Shown: one piece after another, positions 3,895 through 13,916 of the stretch | Layout: the number at the start of each line of letters is the position of its first letter | Position numbering within the stretch: position 1 is the stretch's first letter | Virus record (IMG/VR): IMGVR_UViG_2675903330_000002 | Length of the DNA stretch: 34,322 nucleotides | Reading direction: 5' to 3' (one strand) | DNA from: a virus | Lineage: Duplodnaviria > Heunggongvirae > Uroviricota > Caudoviricetes | Notes under the pieces: model-generated | Seen by the model: only the letters and a program-made list of their open reading frames with translations | Told to the model about the DNA's origin: nothing | Database searches by the model: none | Made by a program: the position numbers and the translations under genes

Positions 3895-4166
3895 GTATTC
3901 GTATTGAAATTGGCGAACGTTATGTCGTTACCAGTGACAGCTTTCAGTTTATTCTCCACGAGAAAAAGAGAGCGGAAAGCGGTAAAAACGCCGGTCAGGA
4001 ATGGCTGTCGGTGGTTGGTTATTACCCGAAATTAAGCCAGCTCGTTTCCGGCCTGATGCATCACGATATTCTGACCGGAAGCGCAAAGTCTTTTGCTGAT
4101 TTAAACGTGCAGGTTGAGCAACTCAGCAAGCGTTGTTCAGAGGCTTTTGGCTCATATGGCCGTTAA
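3891..4166 (+). CDS. P2 orf83-like hypothetical protein (91 aa)
   Basis: ORF with ATG at 3891 overlapping the upstream stop. Its 3' end overlaps the start of A. Confidence 0.55.
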   Translation: MSIRIEIGERYVVTSDSFQFILHEKKRAESGKNAGQEWLSVVGYYPKLSQLVSGLMHHDILTGSAKSFADLNVQVEQLSKRCSEAFGSYGR

Positions 4167-6432
4167 AGCCTCCGGGCGTTTTGTCCCTCCGTCAGCATTT
4201 GCCGCAGGCACCGGTAAGGCGTTTACCGGTGCTTATGCATGGAACGCGCCACGCGAGGCTGTCGGGCGCGAAAGACCCCTTACACGTGACGAGATGCGTC
4301 AGGTGCAAGGTGTTTTATCCACGATTAACCGCCTGCCTTACTTTTTGCGCTCGCTGTTTACTTCACGCTATGACTACATCCGGCGCAATAAAAGCCCGGT
4401 GCACGGGTTTTATTTTCTCACATCCACTTTTCAGCGTCGTTTATGGCCGCGCATTGAGCGTGTGAATCAGCGCCATGAAATGAACACCGACGCGTCGTTG
4501 CTGTTTCTGGCAGAGCGTGACCATTATGCGCGTCTGCCGGGGATGAATGACAAGGAGCTGAAAAAGTTTGCCGCCCGTATCTCATCGCAGCTTTTCATGA
4601 TGTATGAGGAACTCTGCGATGCCTGGGTGGATGCGCATGGCGAAAAAGAATCGCTGTTTACGGATGAGGCGCAGGCTCACCTCTATGGTCATGTTGCTGG
4701 TGCTGCACGTGCTTTCAATATTTCCCCTCTCTACTGGAAAAAATACCGTAAAGGGCAGATGACCACGAGGCAGGCATATTCTGCCATTGCCCGTCTGTTT
4801 AACGATGAGTGGTGGACCCATCAGCTTAAAGGCCAGCGTATGCGCTGGCATGAGGCGTTACTGATTGCTGTCGGGGAGGTCAATAAAGACCGTTCTCCTT
4901 ATGCCAGTAAACATGCCATTCGTGATGTGCGTGCACGCCGCCAGGCAAATCTGGAATTTCTTAAATCGTGTGATCTCGAAAACAGGGAAACCGGCGAGCG
5001 CATCGACCTTATCAGTAAGGTGATGGGCAGTATTTCTAATCCTGAAATTCGCCGGATGGAGCTGATGAACACCATTGCCGGTATTGAGCGTTACGCCGCA
5101 GCAGAGGGTGATGTGGGGATGTTTATCACGCTGACCGCGCCGTCAAAGTATCACCCGACACGTCAGGTCGGAAAAGGCGAAAGTAAAACCGTCCAGCTTA
5201 ATCACGGCTGGAATGATGAGGCATTTAATCCAAAGGATGCGCAGCGATATCTCTGCCGTATCTGGAGCCTGATGCGCACGGCATTCAAGGATAATGATTT
5301 ACAGGTCTACGGTTTGCGTGTCGTCGAGCCACACCACGACGGAACGCCGCACTGGCATATGATGCTTTTTTGTAATCCACGCCAGCGTAACCAGATTATC
5401 GAAATCATGCGTCGCTACGCGCTCAAAGAGGATGGAGACGAAAGAGGAGCTGCGCGAAACCGTTTTCAGGCAATACACCTTAACCGGGGCGGTGCTGCGG
5501 GATATATCGCGAAATACATTTCAAAAAACATCGACGGCTATGCACTGGATGGTCAGCTCGATAACGATACCGGCAGGCCGCTGAAAGACACTGCCGCGGC
5601 TGTTACCGCATGGGCGTCAACGTGGCGCATTCCGCAATTTAAAACGGTTGGCCTGCCGACAATGGGGGCTTACCGTGAACTACGCAAATTGCCTCGCGGC
5701 GTCAGCATTGCTGATGAGTTTGACGAACGCGTCGAGGCTGCACGCGCTGCCGCAGACAGTGGCGATTTTGCGCTGTATATCAGCGCGCAGGGTGGGGCAA
5801 ATGTCCCGCGCGATTGTCAGACTGTCAGGGTCGCCCGTAGCCCGTCGGATGACGTTAACGAGTACGAGGAAGAGGTCGAGAGAGTGGTCGGCATTTACGC
5901 GCCGCATCTCGGCGCGCGTCATATTCATATCACCAGAACGACGGACTGGCGCATTGTGCCGAAAGTTCCGGTCGTTCAGCCTTTGACTTTAAAAAGCGGC
6001 ATCGCCGCGCCTCGGAGTCCTGTCAATAACTGTGGAAAGCTCACCGGTGGTGATACTTCGTTACCGGCTCCCACACCTTCTGAGCACGCCGCAGCAGTGC
6101 TTAATCTGGTAGATGACGGTGTTATCGAATGGAATGACCAGGAGGTCGTGAGGGCGCTCAGAGGTGCATTAAAACACGGTCTGAGAAGACCAAACCGTCA
6201 GCAAAGAAACGGAAGCCCGTTAAAACCGCATGAAATAGCGCCATCGGCCAGACTGACCCGGTCGGAACGAATGCAAATTACCCGTATCCGCGTTGACCTT
6301 GCTCAGAACGGTATCAGGCCACAGCGATGGGAGCTTGAGGCGCTGGCGCGTGGCGCGACCGTAAATTATGACGGGGAAAAATTCACGTATCCGGTCGCTG
6401 ATGAGTGGCCGGGATTCTCAACAAACATATAA
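4156..6432 (+). CDS. A: replication initiation endonuclease A (rolling-circle, HUH-type)
   Basis: About 758-aa ORF in the P2 gpA position, with an H-x-H metal-binding motif (HWHMMLF) and nearby Tyr residues. The track ORF starts at a TTG at 4114; the first ATG is at 4156. Confidence 0.85.
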   Translation: MAVKASGRFVPPSAFAAGTGKAFTGAYAWNAPREAVGRERPLTRDEMRQVQGVLSTINRLPYFLRSLFTSRYDYIRRNKSPVHGFYFLTSTFQRRLWPRIERVNQRHEMNTDASLLFLAERDHYARLPGMNDKELKKFAARISSQLFMMYEELCDAWVDAHGEKESLFTDEAQAHLYGHVAGAARAFNISPLYWKKYRKGQMTTRQAYSAIARLFNDEWWTHQLKGQRMRWHEALLIAVGEVNKDRSPYASKHAIRDVRARRQANLEFLKSCDLENRETGERIDLISKVMGSISNPEIRRMELMNTIAGIERYAAAEGDVGMFITLTAPSKYHPTRQVGKGESKTVQLNHGWNDEAFNPKDAQRYLCRIWSLMRTAFKDNDLQVYGLRVVEPHHDGTPHWHMMLFCNPRQRNQIIEIMRRYALKEDGDERGAARNRFQAIHLNRGGAAGYIAKYISKNIDGYALDGQLDNDTGRPLKDTAAAVTAWASTWRIPQFKTVGLPTMGAYRELRKLPRGVSIADEFDERVEAARAAADSGDFALYISAQGGANVPRDCQTVRVARSPSDDVNEYEEEVERVVGIYAPHLGARHIHITRTTDWRIVPKVPVVQPLTLKSGIAAPRSPVNNCGKLTGGDTSLPAPTPSEHAAAVLNLVDDGVIEWNDQEVVRALRGALKHGLRRPNRQQRNGSPLKPHEIAPSARLTRSERMQITRIRVDLAQNGIRPQRWELEALARGATVNYDGEKFTYPVADEWPGFSTNI

Positions 6433-6919: not shown

Positions 6920-8464
6920 TTAAGCGCTGTGTTCCTTGTCGAATAAGTTCACTTCTTCTGGTGTAATATCATTATCCATTTCTTCGAATGCATCTAAATC
7001 CACAATTTTTGTTTTTTTCAAAATTGATAGTATTTTCTGTTTGTTTTTACTTTTGGCTGAGCCCGGAATCCACTCTACATCCCACAGGCCATCAATGGTA
7101 AATGTTTTTTTTCCCTTGAGTTCATCATTTATGCGTTGACATAGGGCTGTTTTGTAATCGCCTTCCCATTGTGTGTGTATCTTCCCTTGAACTCGTTGAA
7201 ACCAAATATCTAACATTTCAGTATTTGGTTGTTTACCTAGTTTACAATGAAGTTGTTGTAACTTGCCAAATTTGAGTTCATCGTCGTCATAAAGGAAGGT
7301 CAAGAGTTTTGCGAAAATAGCCATTCCCACTGGGTAGGTGGTTGGGTTTTTAGCCATGATGCTTGAAATAATTCCAAGCATTGCATCTAGTTGATGCCCA
7401 CTATTTGTGATCTTTTTCTTCCTAAATAATTTTCGCAAGAAATCATTTAAATATCTAACTGTAATTTTGGAGTTTTGATGTTTTAAAGAAAATAAATATA
7501 TTGCATACAACATTTTCTGTAGGGAGTTGAACGACCTTTCTATAATATATTCTTTTTTTGCTGATTTAAGGGAGTGAAGAATGATGTCGTCATGTAGTTC
7601 TGTTTTTCTTGAGTTTAAATCAAGCCCAAACTCACCTAAGACCTCAACCAAACACTTTGAGATTTTGTCCAAATCATCTTTACTGCTTGAAAATATTCGA
7701 TAATCATCTCTGTAGCGAACTACTTTGTAATCCGTTATTTTTTGCTCTTCAGTTTTTTTTCTTAGCTGTAAATCAATTTCGCCTAAAATTAATTCGGCAA
7801 ATGTATCCATCAACGTACTACCCAATGGTATTCCGTTTGTCTGATTACTCATCATCATCTGGATATGAGTGTCAATCAATCGTCCTGGGTTATTGTTATT
7901 TTCTTTCTTTTTGGCCTCTTCTTTTGAGATGAATACCCATTCAAAGCTATGAGTGTAAATAGAAGGGTAGAAGTTTGAAATATCTGTGCTGAACATGAAC
8001 TCATACTCAAGAGCCAATGAAAGACTTTTTTGTTCAAAATCTTCCCACCAGTTTAAAACAGATGCAGCTACGTTTGAGGTGTTCTTTTTGCTCACTGGGG
8101 TACTTGAGCATAAAAAAAGATCATTAGACTCAAACTCTCTAAATTTATTCTTTATAGCCTTCCAGTTGGAAGGGGATGTAATAAGTTTACAAAAATACAC
8201 GTAGTACAGAGGATTAATTAGTGTTATTCGTCGCCAGCTATATAAGCCATCTTTGCTGACTAAAACCTCGTAATTTATATTCTTCCCCATCAATGACTTG
8301 GAGTCAGGTTGGAAGTTGATTTTACCTTCATCTATCGCGGAGTTGATTTCTTCAAGCAAGGAAGAAAAATCGACATAACTGGGTAGCTCCAGAGTAGTGT
8401 ATGAATCATGCTGCAGAAAATACTTAAGCGCTCTACCAGTAGTTAATTCATAAATCTTTTTCAT
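6920..8464 (-). CDS. Abi-type reverse transcriptase (AbiA/AbiK/Abi-P2-like), 515 aa, in the P2 tin/old slot
   Basis: RT palm motifs readable in the translation: RRITLINP (motif 1), FSTDISNFYPSIY (motif A), NGIPLGSTLMDTFAEL (motif B), VRYRDDYRIF (YxDD, motif C), GLDLNSRKTEL (motif D/E). An extra C-terminal domain of about 175 aa follows. Start taken at MKKIYEL (8464); the track's longer form starts at 8590. The gene is AT-rich relative to the phage backbone. Confidence 0.75.
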   Translation of the reverse strand: MKKIYELTTGRALKYFLQHDSYTTLELPSYVDFSSLLEEINSAIDEGKINFQPDSKSLMGKNINYEVLVSKDGLYSWRRITLINPLYYVYFCKLITSPSNWKAIKNKFREFESNDLFLCSSTPVSKKNTSNVAASVLNWWEDFEQKSLSLALEYEFMFSTDISNFYPSIYTHSFEWVFISKEEAKKKENNNNPGRLIDTHIQMMMSNQTNGIPLGSTLMDTFAELILGEIDLQLRKKTEEQKITDYKVVRYRDDYRIFSSSKDDLDKISKCLVEVLGEFGLDLNSRKTELHDDIILHSLKSAKKEYIIERSFNSLQKMLYAIYLFSLKHQNSKITVRYLNDFLRKLFRKKKITNSGHQLDAMLGIISSIMAKNPTTYPVGMAIFAKLLTFLYDDDELKFGKLQQLHCKLGKQPNTEMLDIWFQRVQGKIHTQWEGDYKTALCQRINDELKGKKTFTIDGLWDVEWIPGSAKSKNKQKILSILKKTKIVDLDAFEEMDNDITPEEVNLFDKEHSA

Positions 8465-8670
8465 AATTAGTGATTTCTTCTTAAGTTGCGCACAAATAAC
8501 TACCTGTTTTCTATCATGATAACGATGCGAATGCGAGCAATTCAGGAAGTGCATTACTCTGCATCGAAGCGCACGCAAGTCAGAGAACAATAACTGCCTG
8601 GCGACATCAGGACTGGCGCGCTAGTTGAGTGGTCATGCAACTGCATTAAAACCGCCCCATGAAGCGGGCG

Positions 8671-8689
8671 GGCGAGGCGGGGGAAGCAC
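8671..8689. other. cos site (19-nt cohesive-end sequence GGCGAGGCGGGGGAAGCAC)
   Basis: Matches the P2/186 cohesive-end sequence as I recall it, with at most one difference. Lies between the A-side genes and Q as in P2, within a GC-rich dyad region. Confidence 0.7.
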
Positions 8690-8859
8690 TGCGCGCTAAA
8701 CGATGTCGCTGGCTTGCAGTTACCCGGTTGAAATTCTTATTTTTTTGTTGCATTATTCTTAGCGCACCAGCGATTCGCTTGGTATGCGGCAGTCAACAAC
8801 ATTAAATTGTCAGTTTTTGCTTTTACAAAAAAGCGTCCACTATGGACCTATCAGCGAGG

Positions 8860-9000
8860 CCCCACCGTCGTCAACTACGATGGTGCCGTAGCCGACGACA
8901 TTACGTACGGTCGAAAGATAGCAGAGGCTGTTGCTGACAATTGTTGATGTAAGCATCTCTGCTGTTCCACCCTTGAGTATGGGAAGACCGTACGTAACTT
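8860..9000 (+). ncRNA. candidate structured non-coding RNA upstream of the retron-type RT (possible msr/msd-like element)
   Basis: Perfect 12-bp inverted repeat TTACGTACGGTC (8901-8912) and GACCGTACGTAA (8986-8997), the latter 17 nt before the RT start codon. A compound hairpin GTCGTC-A-CTACG-loop-CGTAG-CC-GACGAC lies at 8867-8899, and an inner AGCAGAG/CTCTGCT stem at 8920-8963. Boundaries and strand are not established. Confidence 0.3.
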
Positions 9001-9014
9001 TGAATTTGAATGGT

Positions 9015-10205
9015 ATGTTTATGGATAAATTTAAACCATACAGCAAATCCAATGCTCCTATCACAACACTTGAAAAGTTGTCAAAGGCTTTATCGATTTC
9101 TGTTGAAGAGCTTAAAGCTATTGCAGAATTACCATTAGATGAGAAATATACTCTAAAAGAAATTCCCAAAATTGACGGAAGCAAACGGATTGTCTACTCC
9201 CTGCATCCTAAAATGAGATTATTACAGAGTAGAATTAATAAACGTATCTTTAAGGAATTGGTTGTTTTTCCTTCATTTTTGTTTGGTTCAGTTCCCAGTA
9301 AAAATGATGTTTTAAATTCTAATGTCAAACGTGACTATGTTTCATGTGCAAAGGCTCATTGTGGAGCAAAAACAGTTCTCAAGGTGGATATAAGTAATTT
9401 TTTCGATAATATCCATAGAGATCTGGTTAGGAGCGTGTTTGAGGAGATATTGCATATTAAGGATGAGGCTCTTGAATACTTGGTGGATATATGTACTAAG
9501 GATGATTTTGTCGTACAGGGGGCCTTAACATCAAGCTATATAGCAACTTTGTGTTTATTCGCTGTTGAAGGGGATGTGGTAAGACGTGCGCAGAGGAAAG
9601 GACTTGTTTATACGCGTTTGGTAGATGATATTACCGTGTCATCTAAAATAAGTAATTATGATTTTTCTCAAATGCAAAGCCATATAGAGAGGATGCTTTC
9701 TGAGCATGACTTGCCGATAAATAAGCGCAAAACTAAAATATTTCACTGTTCATCTGAACCTATAAAAGTACATGGTTTAAGAGTTGACTATGACTCACCT
9801 CGACTACCATCCGATGAAGTCAAAAGAATCAGGGCATCTATACATAATTTGAAATTACTGGCGGCAAAAAATAACACAAAAACAAGTGTTGCATACAGAA
9901 AAGAATTCAATAGATGTATGGGGAGAGTGAATAAGCTTGGCCGTGTTGCGCATGAAAAATATGAATCATTCAAGAAACAGTTGCAGGCAATAAAACCGAT
10001 GCCATCTAAAAGAGATGTTGCTGTGATTGATGCAGCTATAAAAAGTTTAGAGTTGTCGTATTCGAAAGGTAATCAAAATAAACATTGGTATAAAAGAAAA
10101 TATGATTTGACGAGATATAAGATGATTATTCTTACTCGCTCTGAATCATTTAAAGAAAAACTGGAGTGTTTTAAATCTAGATTGGCATCTTTAAAACCAT
10201 TATGA
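9015..10205 (+). CDS. retron-type reverse transcriptase (about 396 aa)
   Basis: Motifs align in order with retron RTs such as Ec86 (from memory): SKALSISVEEL (N-terminal), RIVYSLHP (motif 1), AKAHCGA (NAxxH-like), KVDISNFFDNI (motif A), VVQGALTSSYIATL (motif B), YTRLVDDITVS (motif C), INKRKTKI, KVHGLRV (VTG-like, Thr replaced by His), IRASIHNL. Start taken at the first ATG (9015); the track ORF begins at a TTG at 8931. Confidence 0.75.
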   Translation: MFMDKFKPYSKSNAPITTLEKLSKALSISVEELKAIAELPLDEKYTLKEIPKIDGSKRIVYSLHPKMRLLQSRINKRIFKELVVFPSFLFGSVPSKNDVLNSNVKRDYVSCAKAHCGAKTVLKVDISNFFDNIHRDLVRSVFEEILHIKDEALEYLVDICTKDDFVVQGALTSSYIATLCLFAVEGDVVRRAQRKGLVYTRLVDDITVSSKISNYDFSQMQSHIERMLSEHDLPINKRKTKIFHCSSEPIKVHGLRVDYDSPRLPSDEVKRIRASIHNLKLLAAKNNTKTSVAYRKEFNRCMGRVNKLGRVAHEKYESFKKQLQAIKPMPSKRDVAVIDAAIKSLELSYSKGNQNKHWYKRKYDLTRYKMIILTRSESFKEKLECFKSRLASLKPL

Positions 10206-10909
10206 ATGCAAATATTAGACTTCTCAAATATATTGTCGGTGTGTCGTCAGCTCTTTTTTTGATTTTTTCGCTAATTTCTCTTTTTGAAACTATTCAGAAT
10301 GAAAAGCTATATGAGCGTGATATATGCTTCGATAGCCAGTGCTTAAAATTTTTTGCGGAAAAAACATCTGGTATAGTAATGTATTTTCAGGCGTTTGGAT
10401 GGCTTATAACAACTTTTGTTACCGTTTTTGGTGTTATGATTGCTTTGATGACATATAACGCTGGAGTTAAAAATAATAATAATAGTAATTACACTAGTCA
10501 TCTGACGATGTTTAGAGAATTTGCAAGTGCTGAGTTAACTAAAAGAAGTAGCATCTATCCAGAGAAAGTTAATTTTTTTAGATGGTATAGGGTTATGTTC
10601 CCTGAAGCGCAAGGCGGTGATATATCTGTTTCGAGAGATTATCTAGAAATAATATCTAGAATCAAATGTGTTATTGAGGAAGCCAATGCACATATTACAG
10701 AGGAAAATAAAGACTATAAATATAAAACTCATCAGAGAAAAATGATGGCTGTTTTGGATGAAATCGGTATATCGATTAGTAATGGGCCCAAAAATATTTT
10801 TATTGAGGTTGAGAGTCAAATTTTGGATTATATCGATACTATTAATTTGTCATTTTGTCACTCCTCATCAGTGATAGAATTAAGTAGAGTAAAAAGGAAG
10901 TATATATAG
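10202..10909 (+). CDS. two-transmembrane-helix protein, putative retron effector (235 aa)
   Basis: ATGA overlap with the RT stop indicates translational coupling. Two hydrophobic helices (LLKYIVGVSSALFLIFSLISLF and GIVMYFQAFGWLITTFVTVFGVMIALMTY) precede a soluble domain of about 150 aa with no motif I recognise. Confidence 0.65.
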   Translation: MNANIRLLKYIVGVSSALFLIFSLISLFETIQNEKLYERDICFDSQCLKFFAEKTSGIVMYFQAFGWLITTFVTVFGVMIALMTYNAGVKNNNNSNYTSHLTMFREFASAELTKRSSIYPEKVNFFRWYRVMFPEAQGGDISVSRDYLEIISRIKCVIEEANAHITEENKDYKYKTHQRKMMAVLDEIGISISNGPKNIFIEVESQILDYIDTINLSFCHSSSVIELSRVKRKYI

Positions 10910-10911
10910 TT

Positions 10912-10940
10912 AAGTTGGCGGGATTGCATTCCGCCAACTT
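10912..10940. terminator. hairpin terminator between convergent effector gene and Q
   Basis: 10-bp perfect stem AAGTTGGCGG/CCGCCAACTT with a 9-nt loop, followed by TTATATATTTA. Lies in the 42-bp gap between two convergent stop codons. Confidence 0.5.
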
Positions 10941-10951
10941 TATATATTTAC

Positions 10952-11971
10952 TTATAAGTTATAATCAAGGAATTTTATGACTTCCATATCTAACCATTCA
11001 TTTATTGACTTTATTCTCTCCTGTAATGGAATGAGTTCATTGCGGACAAAGACCTTTGCCACTTTTTCAATATCTCCTAGTGACCCGACATTCTCCGGCT
11101 TACCGCCCATCAACTGAAAGGGGATGCGGTGTGCGTCCAGGAGATCTGCGGCGCTGACTTTTTTGATATTAAAAAAATCGTCCTTCGTCGCCACTTCACT
11201 GAGGGGGATAATTTTAATGCCGTCGGCTTTCCCCTGTGGGGCATAGAGAAACAGGTTTTTAAAGTTGTTGCGGCCTTTCGACTTAACCATGTTTTCGCGA
11301 AGCATTTCGATATCGTTGCGATCCTGCACGGCATCGGTGACATACATGATGTATCCGGCATGAGCGCCGTTTTCGTAATACTTGCGGCGGAACAGCGTGG
11401 CCGACTCATTCAGCCAGGCAGAGTTAAGGGCGCTGAGATATTCCGGCAGGCCGTACAGCTCCTGATTGATATCCGGCTCCAGCAGGTGAAACACGGAGCC
11501 GGGCGCGAAGGCTGTCGGCTCGTTGAAGGACGGCACCCACCAGTAAACATCCTCCTCCACGCCACGGCGGGTATATTTTGCCGGTGAGGTTTCCAGTCTG
11601 ATGACCTTACCGGTGGTGCTGTAACGCTTTTCCAGAAACGCATTACCGAACACCAGAAAATCCAGCACAAAGCGGCTGAAATCCTGCTGGGACAGCCACG
11701 GGTGCGGGATAAACGTTGAAGCCAGAATATTGCGTTTAACGTAAATCGGTGAGCTGTGATGCACGGCAGCACGCAGGCTTTTTGCCAGACCGGTAAAGCT
11801 GACCGGTGGCTCATACCATCTGCCGTTACTGATGCACTCGACGTAATCCAGAATATCACGGCGGTCGAGTACCGGCACCGGCTCACCAAAGGTGAATGCC
11901 TCCATTTTCGGGGCGCTGGCAGTCATTGTTTTCACCGCTGGCTGCGGTGTTTTCCCTTTTTTCTTACTCAT
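10952..11971 (-). CDS. Q: portal protein (gpQ-like), 339 aa
   Basis: Position and size as P2 Q. Start overlaps the stop of P (ATGA). Confidence 0.85.
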   Translation of the reverse strand: MSKKKGKTPQPAVKTMTASAPKMEAFTFGEPVPVLDRRDILDYVECISNGRWYEPPVSFTGLAKSLRAAVHHSSPIYVKRNILASTFIPHPWLSQQDFSRFVLDFLVFGNAFLEKRYSTTGKVIRLETSPAKYTRRGVEEDVYWWVPSFNEPTAFAPGSVFHLLEPDINQELYGLPEYLSALNSAWLNESATLFRRKYYENGAHAGYIMYVTDAVQDRNDIEMLRENMVKSKGRNNFKNLFLYAPQGKADGIKIIPLSEVATKDDFFNIKKVSAADLLDAHRIPFQLMGGKPENVGSLGDIEKVAKVFVRNELIPLQERIKSINEWLDMEVIKFLDYNL

Positions 11972-13743
11972 CAGTAAAACTCCAGAATGGTGGATGTCAG
12001 CGGGGTGCTGATACCGGCGGTGAGTGGCTCATTTAACAGGGCGTGCATGGTCGCCCAGGCGAGATCGGCGTGGCTGGCTTCCTCGCTGCGGCTGGCCTCA
12101 TAGGTGGCGCTGCGTCCGCTGCTGGTCATGGTCTTGCGGATAGCCATAAACGAGCTGGTGATGTCGGTGGCGCTGACGTCATATTCCAGACAGCCACGGC
12201 GGATAACGTCTTTTGCCTTGAGCACCATTGCGGTTTTCATTTCCGGCGTGTAGCGGATATCGCGCGCGGCGGGATAGAACGAGCGCACGAGCTGGAACAC
12301 GCCGACACCGAGGCCGGTGGCATCAATCCCGATGTATTCAACGTTATATTTTTCGGTGAGTTTGCGGATGGATTCCGCCTGGGTGGCAAAGTCCATGCCT
12401 TTCCACTGGTGACGCTCAAGTATTCTGAATTTGCCACCGGCCACCACCGGCGGTGCCAGTACCACGCATCCGGCGCTGTCGCCACGGTGTGACGGGTCGT
12501 AACCAATCCATACCGGGCGGGAGCCGAACGGATTTGCGGCAAACGGCGCATAGTCTTCCCATTCTTCCAGCGTGTCGACCATGCAACGTTGCAGCTCCTC
12601 GAACGGGAACACCGACGCCTTGTCGTCAACAAATTCACACATGAACAGGTTTTTAAAATCGTCGGCGCTGTTTTCACGTTTGAGCTGCTCAATGTCGAAC
12701 AGCGTGCAGCCGCCTTTCAGGGCGTCCTCAATGGTGACAATCTGCCGCCACTGGCCGTCCGCACAGAGAAGACCTCCGGCAAGGGCGTTATGACTGACGT
12801 CGATTTCCACGCGTTCGGCGGCGCTGGCGCGTCCCCGGTTGAACAGTTCACCCGACCAGAACGGGTAGGCGTCGTGCGCCAGCGTGGACGGGGTGGAGAA
12901 ATAGGTCGAGCGCAGGTGACTCTGTGAGGCCATACCTGATGCCACCTTACGCAGTACCTGAAAATTCGGGATCCAGAAAATCTCGTCGACGTACAGGTCG
13001 CCGTTATGGCTCTGTGCGGTGTTGGAGTTGGTGCCGAGAAAAATCAGTTTTGCGCCGTTATTGCCCAGGACAATCGGGTCACCGGTCAGGTCAACGTCAA
13101 CCAGCCGGGCAAAGGCGATGATGTATTCGCGGAACACATACGCCTGCGTTTTACTGGCCGACAGAAAAATCTGGTTATGACCGGTTTTCAGGGCGCGCAG
13201 CAGCGCCTCGCGGGAAAAATAAAACGTCGCGCCAATCTGGCGGGATTTCAGGATATCGCGGATGCGGTGCTCAAGCCCGGCGCGATACCAGTGCAACTGA
13301 TATTCGAAAGACTGCTCAAAGAAAATCTGCTCCAGCTTTTCGATGGCCTCGTCACTGAAAAAATTCTTTTTCGGTTTGCGACGCCCGCCTTTGTTGCGGT
13401 TAGCGACGTTCGGATTAAGGTCTGCCTCGTTGCCGGTCTGACTGTAGCGGTTGACCCGTGCCAGTCGTTCAATCTGACGTCCCAGCAGGTCAATTTCCTT
13501 GAAGTCACCGCCGGTTTTCTGCGGTTTGATGATGAGCTGGGTCAGCCGCGCTTCCAGACTCATTTCGACACGGCTGATGGGGGCAACGCTGTCCCAGCCG
13601 TCGCGCTGTTTCCAGCTCTGCACCGTCGGGCGTTTCATCTGCAACATGGCGGCAATCTGCGGCACGGAAAACCCCTGCCAGTACAGCAGCGCCGCCTGAC
13701 GACGCGGGTCGTGTAAAAGAGTGGTGTCTGTGGTGATGGTCAT
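11971..13743 (-). CDS. P: terminase large (ATPase) subunit (gpP-like), about 590 aa
   Basis: Large ORF divergent from O. Start taken at the internal ATG (13743) preceded by GAGGT, which gives the P2-like size; the track ORF extends to 13773. Confidence 0.85.
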   Translation of the reverse strand: MTITTDTTLLHDPRRQAALLYWQGFSVPQIAAMLQMKRPTVQSWKQRDGWDSVAPISRVEMSLEARLTQLIIKPQKTGGDFKEIDLLGRQIERLARVNRYSQTGNEADLNPNVANRNKGGRRKPKKNFFSDEAIEKLEQIFFEQSFEYQLHWYRAGLEHRIRDILKSRQIGATFYFSREALLRALKTGHNQIFLSASKTQAYVFREYIIAFARLVDVDLTGDPIVLGNNGAKLIFLGTNSNTAQSHNGDLYVDEIFWIPNFQVLRKVASGMASQSHLRSTYFSTPSTLAHDAYPFWSGELFNRGRASAAERVEIDVSHNALAGGLLCADGQWRQIVTIEDALKGGCTLFDIEQLKRENSADDFKNLFMCEFVDDKASVFPFEELQRCMVDTLEEWEDYAPFAANPFGSRPVWIGYDPSHRGDSAGCVVLAPPVVAGGKFRILERHQWKGMDFATQAESIRKLTEKYNVEYIGIDATGLGVGVFQLVRSFYPAARDIRYTPEMKTAMVLKAKDVIRRGCLEYDVSATDITSSFMAIRKTMTSSGRSATYEASRSEEASHADLAWATMHALLNEPLTAGISTPLTSTILEFY

Positions 13744-13916
13744 GAATACCTCGCCGTGATGAATACACGGCAAGGCTACTGAGTCGCGCCCCGCGATTCG
13801 CTAAGGTGCTGTTGTGTCAGTGATAAGCCATCCGGGACTGATGGCGGAGGATGCGCATCGTCGGGAAACTGATGCCGACATGTGACTCCTCTAATCACTA
13901 TTCAGGACTCCTGACA

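Follow-up and report, generated by a model that had tools for sequence, protein, structure and literature searches.

What is the structured, non-coding sequence that lies directly upstream of a retron-type reverse transcriptase (RT) gene in the IMG/VR virus record IMGVR_UViG_2675903330_000002 (Caudoviricetes), and is the perfect 12-bp inverted repeat within it the a1/a2 pair of the retron? We addressed this question in the whole 34,322-nt stretch of DNA taken from that record (hereafter the window, to which all coordinates refer). A preliminary description, made from the letters of the sequence, had read the repeat as a1/a2, with an unusually compact msr-msd between its arms and a branching guanosine directly behind its 5′ arm. 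Our analysis upholds the view that the region is structured, non-coding and part of a retron non-coding RNA (ncRNA), and assigns the repeat a different role. Judged by its conservation and covariation in homologous loci, the repeat is the closing stem of a three-way junction of about 100 nt, composed of an outer stem (the repeat itself), hairpin 1 and hairpin 2. In the account that we regard as probable, this junction is the 3′ half of the Retron-Eco6 ncRNA, an a1:a2 pairing makes the RNA pseudoknotted, and the RT begins to copy its template within the repeat's 5′ arm.

The locus itself is the known Retron-Eco6 (Ec48), a type IV retron consisting of an RT and a 2TM effector, and it occupies a known P2 phage hotspot. 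The open reading frame (ORF) at 9015..10205 (+) matches PADLOC RT_IV over its full length (1.1e-176) and Pfam RVT_1 (4e-31), which bears out the earlier recognition of a retron-type RT. The ORF at 10202..10909 (+) encodes the effector, with matches to PADLOC 2TM_IV (4e-85) and to NCBIfam retron_Ec48_2TM ('retron Ec48 family effector membrane protein'; 2e-67, exceeding its 65-bit cut-off); its start overlaps the RT stop, the two ORFs sharing 10202-10205. An RT of the RT_IV clade, an adjoining and overlapping 2TM gene and an upstream ncRNA containing the published Ec48 msd, by which a type IV retron is recognized, are thus all present. The insert of plasmid pAA10, which carries Ec48 of E. coli DE147 and was tested by Millman et al., equals the window from about 8543 on with a few differences, and the RT encoded at the E. 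coli DE147 genome locus is identical to that of the window. Of 5426 complete E. coli genomes, 57 carry the same cassette, as does phage pro147. As a genome feature, this is an ordinary, known defence system, and the inverted repeat within it should not carry the a1/a2 label.

The arms of the repeat, TTACGTACGGTC at 8901-8912 and GACCGTACGTAA at 8986-8997, are fully complementary and separated by a 73-nt spacer, and the repeat ends 17 nt ahead of the RT start when ATG 9015 is taken as that start (ATG 9021 is the likelier one). The surrounding elements listed in the preliminary description are equally present: a hairpin at 8867-8899 with 13-nt arms (85% complementary), a hairpin at 8920-8963 formed by AGCAGAG and CTCTGCT (8920-8926/8957-8963), an 8-bp palindrome, ACAATTGT, at 8937-8944, and a G after the 5′ arm (G8913). 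The 12-bp repeat is the sole perfect inverted repeat of at least 12 nt with a spacer of at most 250 nt in the 34-kb window; because about 0.5 such repeats are expected per window by chance, it is not significant by itself. The RNA fold of 8895-9003 reaches -43.2 kcal/mol versus -24.9 +/- 3.0 in dinucleotide shuffles (z = -6.0, with 0/200 as good). A scan of positions 7500-11500 against Rfam release 15 at permissive thresholds returned three chance-level matches only (E of at least 1.2, far below gathering scores). What marks the repeat as more than chance is that it is conserved, with compensatory change, at homologous loci.

RT-based scans of genome, metagenome and viral collections yielded about 100 such loci, with RT identities of 26-100%. 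When their upstream regions were folded, those of E. coli, Marinobacter and the loci between them shared a single architecture. All 80 of the 80 non-redundant upstream regions contain a stem of 8-16 bp around 60-90 nt that ends 3-36 nt before the RT start, and in 83% of them its score exceeds the 95th percentile of shuffled controls. Applied to 55 non-redundant segments, RNAalifold recovered the outer stem (8903-8912/8986-8995), a 10-bp stem (8917-8926/8957-8966) and a hairpin (8970-8983), with compensatory change in 23 of the 24 pairs and 93.9% of cells paired, versus 68% after shuffling (0/500 as high) and 36-48% when partners were slid by 1-3 columns; these RNAalifold and shuffle statistics lean to the outer stem, by a search for which the seed segments were picked. 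Free of this selection bias are hairpins 1 and 2, the matches of a covariance model and a full-length, sequence-only MAFFT alignment of 53 sequences, from which the helix percentages and column counts given below are taken unless stated otherwise. The covariance model, built from the 55-segment alignment, matched 74 of the 85 sources searched, exactly once at each locus and always on the strand of the RT, immediately 5′ of it; the sources searched are mostly related type IV loci, and RT identities to the window are 40-100%. It also matches loci that the stem heuristic had missed, its single match in the window is at 8895-9003, and its misses are the most distant relatives or sources lacking upstream sequence. 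Whether the inverted repeat is conserved at homologous loci, which the preliminary description had named among the tests of its reading, can therefore be answered: it is conserved, and it covaries.

In the full-length alignment, the outer stem, with its 5′ arm at 8901..8912 (+) and its 3′ arm at 8986..8997 (+), respectively the 'a1' and 'a2' of the preliminary description, is 94.5% paired, and 12/12 pairs show compensatory change; at the junction, G8986 is G in 45/53 sequences. Hairpin 1 (8917..8966, +) has a lower stem at 8917-8926/8957-8966 and an apical loop of about 30 nt. It is 91% paired with 9/10 pairs compensatory in the structural alignment and 92.5% paired in the MAFFT alignment, and at the top of its stem G8926 is invariant and G8927 near-invariant. 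Hairpin 2 (8970..8983, +) has a CCC/GGG stem that is 94.9% paired in the structural alignment and 98.7% in the MAFFT alignment, together with a near-invariant loop and 3′ strand (..UAUGGG; T8980, G8981), and most likely serves as an RT recognition site. Overall, the sequence between the repeat arms is the most conserved stretch of the RNA and contains near-invariant motifs. Some divergent type IV-like loci (L003, L004, L081, L083-L085 and L105, e.g. in Pseudoalteromonas) go unmatched by the covariance model, with an outer stem of about 10 bp still found upstream of the RT; these may carry a variant of the domain.

Published data place the template outside this domain. In the retron census (supplement, PMC10849725), the sequenced reverse-transcribed DNA (RT-DNA) of Eco6 opens with GTACGTAATGTCGTCGG, also given as GTACGTAATGTCGTCGGCTACGG, the complement of 8908 read leftwards. 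The census listings are sequencing-derived: the Eco1 entry equals the true 85-nt multicopy single-stranded DNA (msDNA). Primers from a second laboratory for donor insertion into the Ec48 'replaceable region' (PMC8563936) fall in the hairpin at 8867-8899, and msDNA-Ec48 has a published length of 48 nt (45 nt by sequencing). On these grounds the msd, the template of the 48-nt msDNA-Ec48, lies at 8861..8908 (+), where the msd position and the start at 8908 come from the literature and the 3′ end at 8861 was computed from the 48-nt length. The first 'extra hairpin' of the preliminary description (8867-8899) is the msd hairpin. The msd lies 5′ of the 5′ arm and overlaps it, the first 8 nt of 8901-8912 doubling as the first templated msd nucleotides; since RT-DNA starts at 8908 and runs leftwards, no compact msr-msd sits between the arms. 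What the repeat shares with an a1/a2 pair is covariation; it neither encloses the msd nor is followed by a conserved G. The msd hairpin is merely 55% paired in register, as expected for the variable part of a retron RNA. Within it, a (G)(U/G)AG motif at 8888-8891 is near-invariant (A8890 in 47/49 and G8891 in 49/49 of the sequences with a residue there) and sits, as (G)UAG, 17-18 nt ahead of the RT-DNA start.

Where, then, are the true a1 and a2? The preliminary description had suggested that a1 might lie further upstream, and a candidate is found there, at 8784..8814 (+). A repeat finder showed 8805-8813 and 8793-8799 to be complementary to 8934-8942 and 8941-8947, and the full pairing comprises three helices with an a2 region in the loop of hairpin 1 (8933..8956, +), not with the repeat arm formerly labelled a2: Hc (8784-8787/8953-8956), Hb (8792-8798/8942-8948) and Ha (8806-8814/8933-8941). 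In register, Hc is 87.7%, Hb 96.2% and Ha 72.3% paired, and all pairs are compensatory. Compared by duplex energy with their own 5′ regions and with those of unrelated homologues, the hairpin-1 loops prefer their own (mean z = -2.4; a median of 2% of non-cognates are as good). In a 5 x 7 grid of segments from the 5′ and 3′ domains (35 pairs), a1 and the loop form the only pair with a signal (z = -3.7), although a1 had been delimited in this grid using its own loop, so that z = -2.4 is the unbiased figure. Since this is the only covarying long-range contact, 8784-8814/8933-8956 is the best candidate for the true a1/a2; and with a2 located in the hairpin-1 loop, the helices between a1 and a2 cross hairpin 1 as well as the outer stem, which makes the RNA pseudoknotted. 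Between Hc and Hb lies a 4x4 internal loop, 8788-8791 facing 8949-8952, in which A8791 is invariant and G8949 and A8951 are near-invariant; speculatively, it may form a sharp bend of the G-A type. The palindrome ACAATTGT is unconserved and is a by-product of two adjoining a2 segments. Two other helices were considered and set aside. The a1/a2 implied by the census (8743-8761 with 8913-8927) has a z of about 0 in the segment grid and lies upstream of the conserved promoter position, and was rejected as the native stem. A helix between the U-run at 8814-8818 and AAAGA at 8914-8918, which would set G8819 opposite G8913 with a template start at C8912, occurs in E. coli-like sequences only, with no family-wide signal, and is kept as a lead.

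A consensus scan recovered a single promoter-like site, the sigma-70-like TTGAAA-17-CATTAT at 8728..8756 (+; -35 at 8728-8733, -10 at 8751-8756), with a predicted start near 8762. The best-matching -35/-10 pair, which often includes a perfect TTGACA, stops 10-13 nt short of one and the same alignment column of a 5′-terminal hairpin, P0, in 33/52 homologous loci. From this conserved promoter position we infer that the native RNA most likely starts at about 8762, in which case the first 19 nt of the census ncRNA would be promoter DNA. P0 itself (8766..8783, +) is supported by folds and by compensatory change in 6/7 pairs, and its loop-closing G8772 and C8776 are invariant. Downstream of a1, folds and alignment define two abutting, msr-like hairpins on the same strand, hpA (8819-8834; 91.6% paired) and hpB (8835-8847; 92.1% paired), in which G8819, G8833 and G8835 are near-invariant and C8834 is invariant.

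Candidates for the priming guanosine were compared by their column counts. G8819, which opens hpA after a U/A-rich linker, is G in 49/53 sequences, and the linker recalls the TTA that often precedes branching Gs according to the census (PMC10849725). G8986, at the top of the 3′ arm, follows with the 45/53 given above, and G8813, the final a1 base, is G in 26/53 in a part of the alignment that is fuzzy; a1 ends CAG, UAG or UGG in many homologues. G8990, which pairs with template C8908, was rejected with G in 17/53, as was a primer directly 3′ of the outer stem, where the 53 sequences have no conserved G. G8913, the branching guanosine of the preliminary description, is present in the window, but because its column holds G in only 16/53 homologues (A in 35, C in 2) it is not a family-wide branching guanosine. 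Production of branched msDNA by Ec48 is known from the literature. Neither an Ec48 ncRNA structure nor a branch position is given in the supplements of Simon 2019, Palka 2022, Kong 2021 and Mestre 2020 (the structure figure of Mestre aside), and our literature search found no structural paper on Ec48.

These elements suggest how the RNA might work. The transcript would begin at about 8762 and run through P0, a single-stranded a1 (8784-8814), the two msr-like hairpins, the msd hairpin and the three-way junction, and the RT, with template C8908 in the 5′ arm as its starting point, would copy leftwards across the msd hairpin and so produce the 48-nt msDNA. In the precursor, the first eight templated bases are paired with 8990-8997, and 8909-8933 are held in helices by sequence 3′ of a2. 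Because the templated bases lie in the outer stem, this stem must open at initiation, and the 5′ arm would disappear together with the template when RNase H degrades it. Along hairpin 1, the a1:a2 helix may bend back at its end, as in H-type pseudoknots, and the priming guanosine (G8813 or G8819, of which the latter is better conserved) would thereby reach the junction atop the outer stem, where the junction and the near-invariant hairpin 2 would dock the RT.

Several observations weigh against this account. The template start at 8908 lies 25 nt from a2 (8933), whereas in canonical retrons the two abut. No covarying contact in the segment grid spans this gap or joins the outer stem, at its top, to a candidate priming G, and G8813 is poorly conserved in a region of fuzzy alignment. 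The Eco6 RT-DNA in the census is about 159 nt long, extending from 8908 to 8749 across the msr-like hairpins, a1 and P0, and is not the 48-nt msDNA; a branch in cis at G8813 or G8819 should block such synthesis through the 5′ domain, and to account for the 8749-8908 listing one would need to assume priming in trans under T7 overexpression. The choice of seed segments by their outer stem, noted above, belongs here as well. Even so, we consider the account as a whole to be probable.

Were the repeat instead a canonical a1/a2 pair, with its branch at G8913 and a compact msr-msd in the 73 nt, the template would start at about 8985 and native msDNA would open 5′-TTCCCATACTCAAGGG.... The length and position of the repeat do resemble those of the Ec86 a1/a2, its 5′ arm has a G directly behind it, both conservation and covariation are seen in the stem, and 48 nt counted leftwards from 8984 would also fit between the arms. 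However, the sequenced RT-DNA and the engineered msd both map to 8861-8908, outside the arms and overlapping the 5′ one, G is the minority base in the G8913 column, and the inter-arm sequence is the most conserved part of the RNA, whereas a retron msd is its variable part, here the hairpin at 8867-8899; we regard this reading as very improbable. Practically no probability attaches to a chance repeat or a phage element unrelated to the retron, whether cos-linked or a terminator: the expectation of about 0.5 perfect 12-mers per window and a cos site about 210 nt upstream would favour it, but no terminator-like site was called there, and the compensatory changes seen in Marinobacter, Marinobacterium and many metagenome loci, wherever a type IV RT is present, already refute it. 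More deserves to be said for a plain element of the 5′ untranslated region (UTR), such as a translational operator, a riboregulator or a stabilising hairpin, with no part in reverse transcription. The domain ends 10-20 nt before the Shine-Dalgarno sequence in all homologues, and in type VI retrons stem-loops downstream of the msd repress effector translation until msDNA accumulates (bioRxiv 10.1101/2025.10.22.683967). Yet the hairpin-1 loop covaries with a1 and the 5′ arm is part of the msd, and therefore the domain is physically part of the retron RNA; moreover, neither arm pairs cognate-specifically with the leader or the ribosome-binding site (RBS), the RBS lies outside the structure, and no cognate-specific complementarity links the msDNA with the domain, the leader or the RBS (for domain and leader, z is between -0.3 and +0.5). 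An element of this kind without any role in reverse transcription appears quite doubtful; a purely regulatory 5′-UTR role alone is unlikely, and a regulatory role besides one in priming is possible.

A further reading keeps the published template and moves the primer. Here the priming G, for which G8986 is the best candidate, would lie downstream of the template. From its 2′-OH, DNA would be extended down the 5′ arm while the RNA strand that carries this G is displaced; the role of msr would fall to the 3′ domain, and that of the 5′ domain would be confined to setting termination. The RTs of diversity-generating retroelements (DGRs) prime from a 2′-OH located 3′ of their template, which counts for this geometry. 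Its main support is that the Eco6 RT-DNA reaching 8749 is easily explained without a branch point in the 5′ domain. The RT-DNA start also lies 4 nt below the junction, within the outer stem, the near-invariant hairpin 2 and the junction adjoin that start site, G8986 is well conserved, and clade 3 constructs designed on canonical expectations gave no RT-DNA in the census (PMC10849725). However, characterised retrons are all reported to have the branching G 5′ of the msd, and Ec48 is described as making regular msDNA; with G8986 as the start, the DNA should begin 3-4 nt before the reported position, the RNA has no helix immediately behind this guanosine that could act as the primer-template duplex, and the msr-like hairpins and the UUA-G-like context are located in the 5′ domain. 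On balance we hold priming from downstream to be unlikely. The same must be said, with no greater expectation, of its extension to type IV retrons as 'inside-out' elements, in which the 3′ junction would take the place of the 5′ hairpins both in docking the RT and in priming, from G8986, with synthesis beginning by strand invasion of the outer stem. If it were true, the msDNA would have its branch on the 5′ UTR of the RT/effector mRNA, and nothing but the a1:a2 pseudoknot would connect it with the 5′ RNA fragment. In a milder form, priming would occur from the 5′ domain and the 3′ domain and pseudoknot would be indispensable, which would explain the failed clade 3 constructs of the census.

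Set beside known systems, the locus is closest to Retron-Eco6 as previously reported (Mao et al. 1997; Millman et al. 2020; Mestre et al. 2020), with the same RT, 2TM effector, upstream RNA and msd hairpin. The Eco6 ncRNA of the census (PMC10849725) corresponds to about 8743-8927: it starts in apparent promoter DNA upstream of the -10 element, and stops inside hairpin 1, so that neither a2 nor hairpin 2 nor the outer stem's 3′ arm is included and half of the junction is missing. With the canonical retron ncRNA (Ec86/Retron-Eco1, a1-G-msr-msd-G-a2), the proposed RNA shares a 5′ a1, msr hairpins, a single variable msd hairpin, an a1/a2 pairing of about 20 bp and an RT gene immediately after it. 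Unlike in the canonical form, a2 would lie in a hairpin loop 25 nt beyond the template start in a pseudoknotted RNA, the bases from the template start to a2 are paired with sequence that lies 3′ of a2, the first templated bases also take part in an additional 12-bp stem, and P0 precedes a1. DGR template RNA, reportedly self-priming from a spacer adenosine 3′ of the template, is relevant to priming from downstream only; it likewise uses a 2′-OH primer 3′ of the template on the same RNA, and differs in its RT family, its accessory protein Avd, adenine mutagenesis and the lack of msDNA. The type VI hybrid RNA of Retron-Vpa2 (bioRxiv 10.1101/2025.10.22.683967) is similar in its RT clade (clade 3), its structured arms between the msd and an a2-like repeat, and its conserved loop motifs; unlike the present domain, which is non-coding and ends before the RBS, its arms hold the RBS, the start codon and a small-toxin coding sequence in a nested fold. 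In type VI, msDNA is proposed to open the riboregulator (same preprint). A riboregulator responsive to msDNA in this manner was considered here and rejected, with the RBS outside the structure and no msDNA-complementary repeat or signal found. The census authors suspect clade 3 ncRNAs to be non-canonical (PMC10849725), and Mestre et al. 2020 list a structured RNA family for type IV. The system is thus known and its RNA architecture seems under-described, although some or all of it may perhaps be drawn in Mestre et al. 2020. The present analysis gives testable boundaries for the type IV ncRNA and a pseudoknotted fold, with a probable start at P0, a2 in a hairpin loop and a junction after the msd. 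If the domain is required, adding it should rescue RT-DNA from other type IV retrons and would redefine the safe sites for donor insertion.

Among retrons, Ec48 is the model for the 'guarding' of RecBCD, and in-cell DNA factories are being engineered from retron RNAs. Downstream of the junction, the AU-rich leader and Shine-Dalgarno region of the RT gene (8998..9020, +) is unpaired with the 3′ domain and shows no cognate-specific pairing with either arm. Because homologous RTs begin at the equivalent of the second ATG, at 9021 (MDKFKP...), this is probably the true start, as the comparison suggests, and the RT would comprise 394 aa instead of 396 aa. The automatically called ORF from TTG 8931 crosses the ncRNA and is non-coding. 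An AU-rich hairpin at 8994-9058 encloses both candidate RT starts and has a chance-level match to Rfam mir-9 (E = 1.5); the start region is foldable in several homologues too.

The wider gene order is that of a P2-like prophage: replication gene A (4114-6432; Phage_GPA, 2.5e-123), an AbiP2-type RT (6920-8590, -), cos (8671-8689), the retron, and the portal and large terminase genes (10952-13773), of which the portal gene lies at 10952-11971 (-) and the large terminase gene at 11971-13773 (-). From the positions of replication gene A, portal and terminase, the hotspot that the retron occupies is the one extending from cos to the portal gene. At 8671-8689, GGCGAGGCGGGGGAAGCAC has one mismatch to what we take to be the 19-nt P2 cohesive end (cos), and about 70 nt around it (more widely 8615-8697) are found again in about 790 E. 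coli genomes and also close to the ends of P2-like phage records. About 40 nt past cos the retron promoter begins; the retron would therefore occupy the extreme left end of the packaged phage genome. Across cos from the retron and divergent to it, the AbiP2-type RT matches PADLOC AbiP2 (4.7e-160) and Pfam RVT_1, so that both P2 hotspots of this prophage hold RT-based defence genes.

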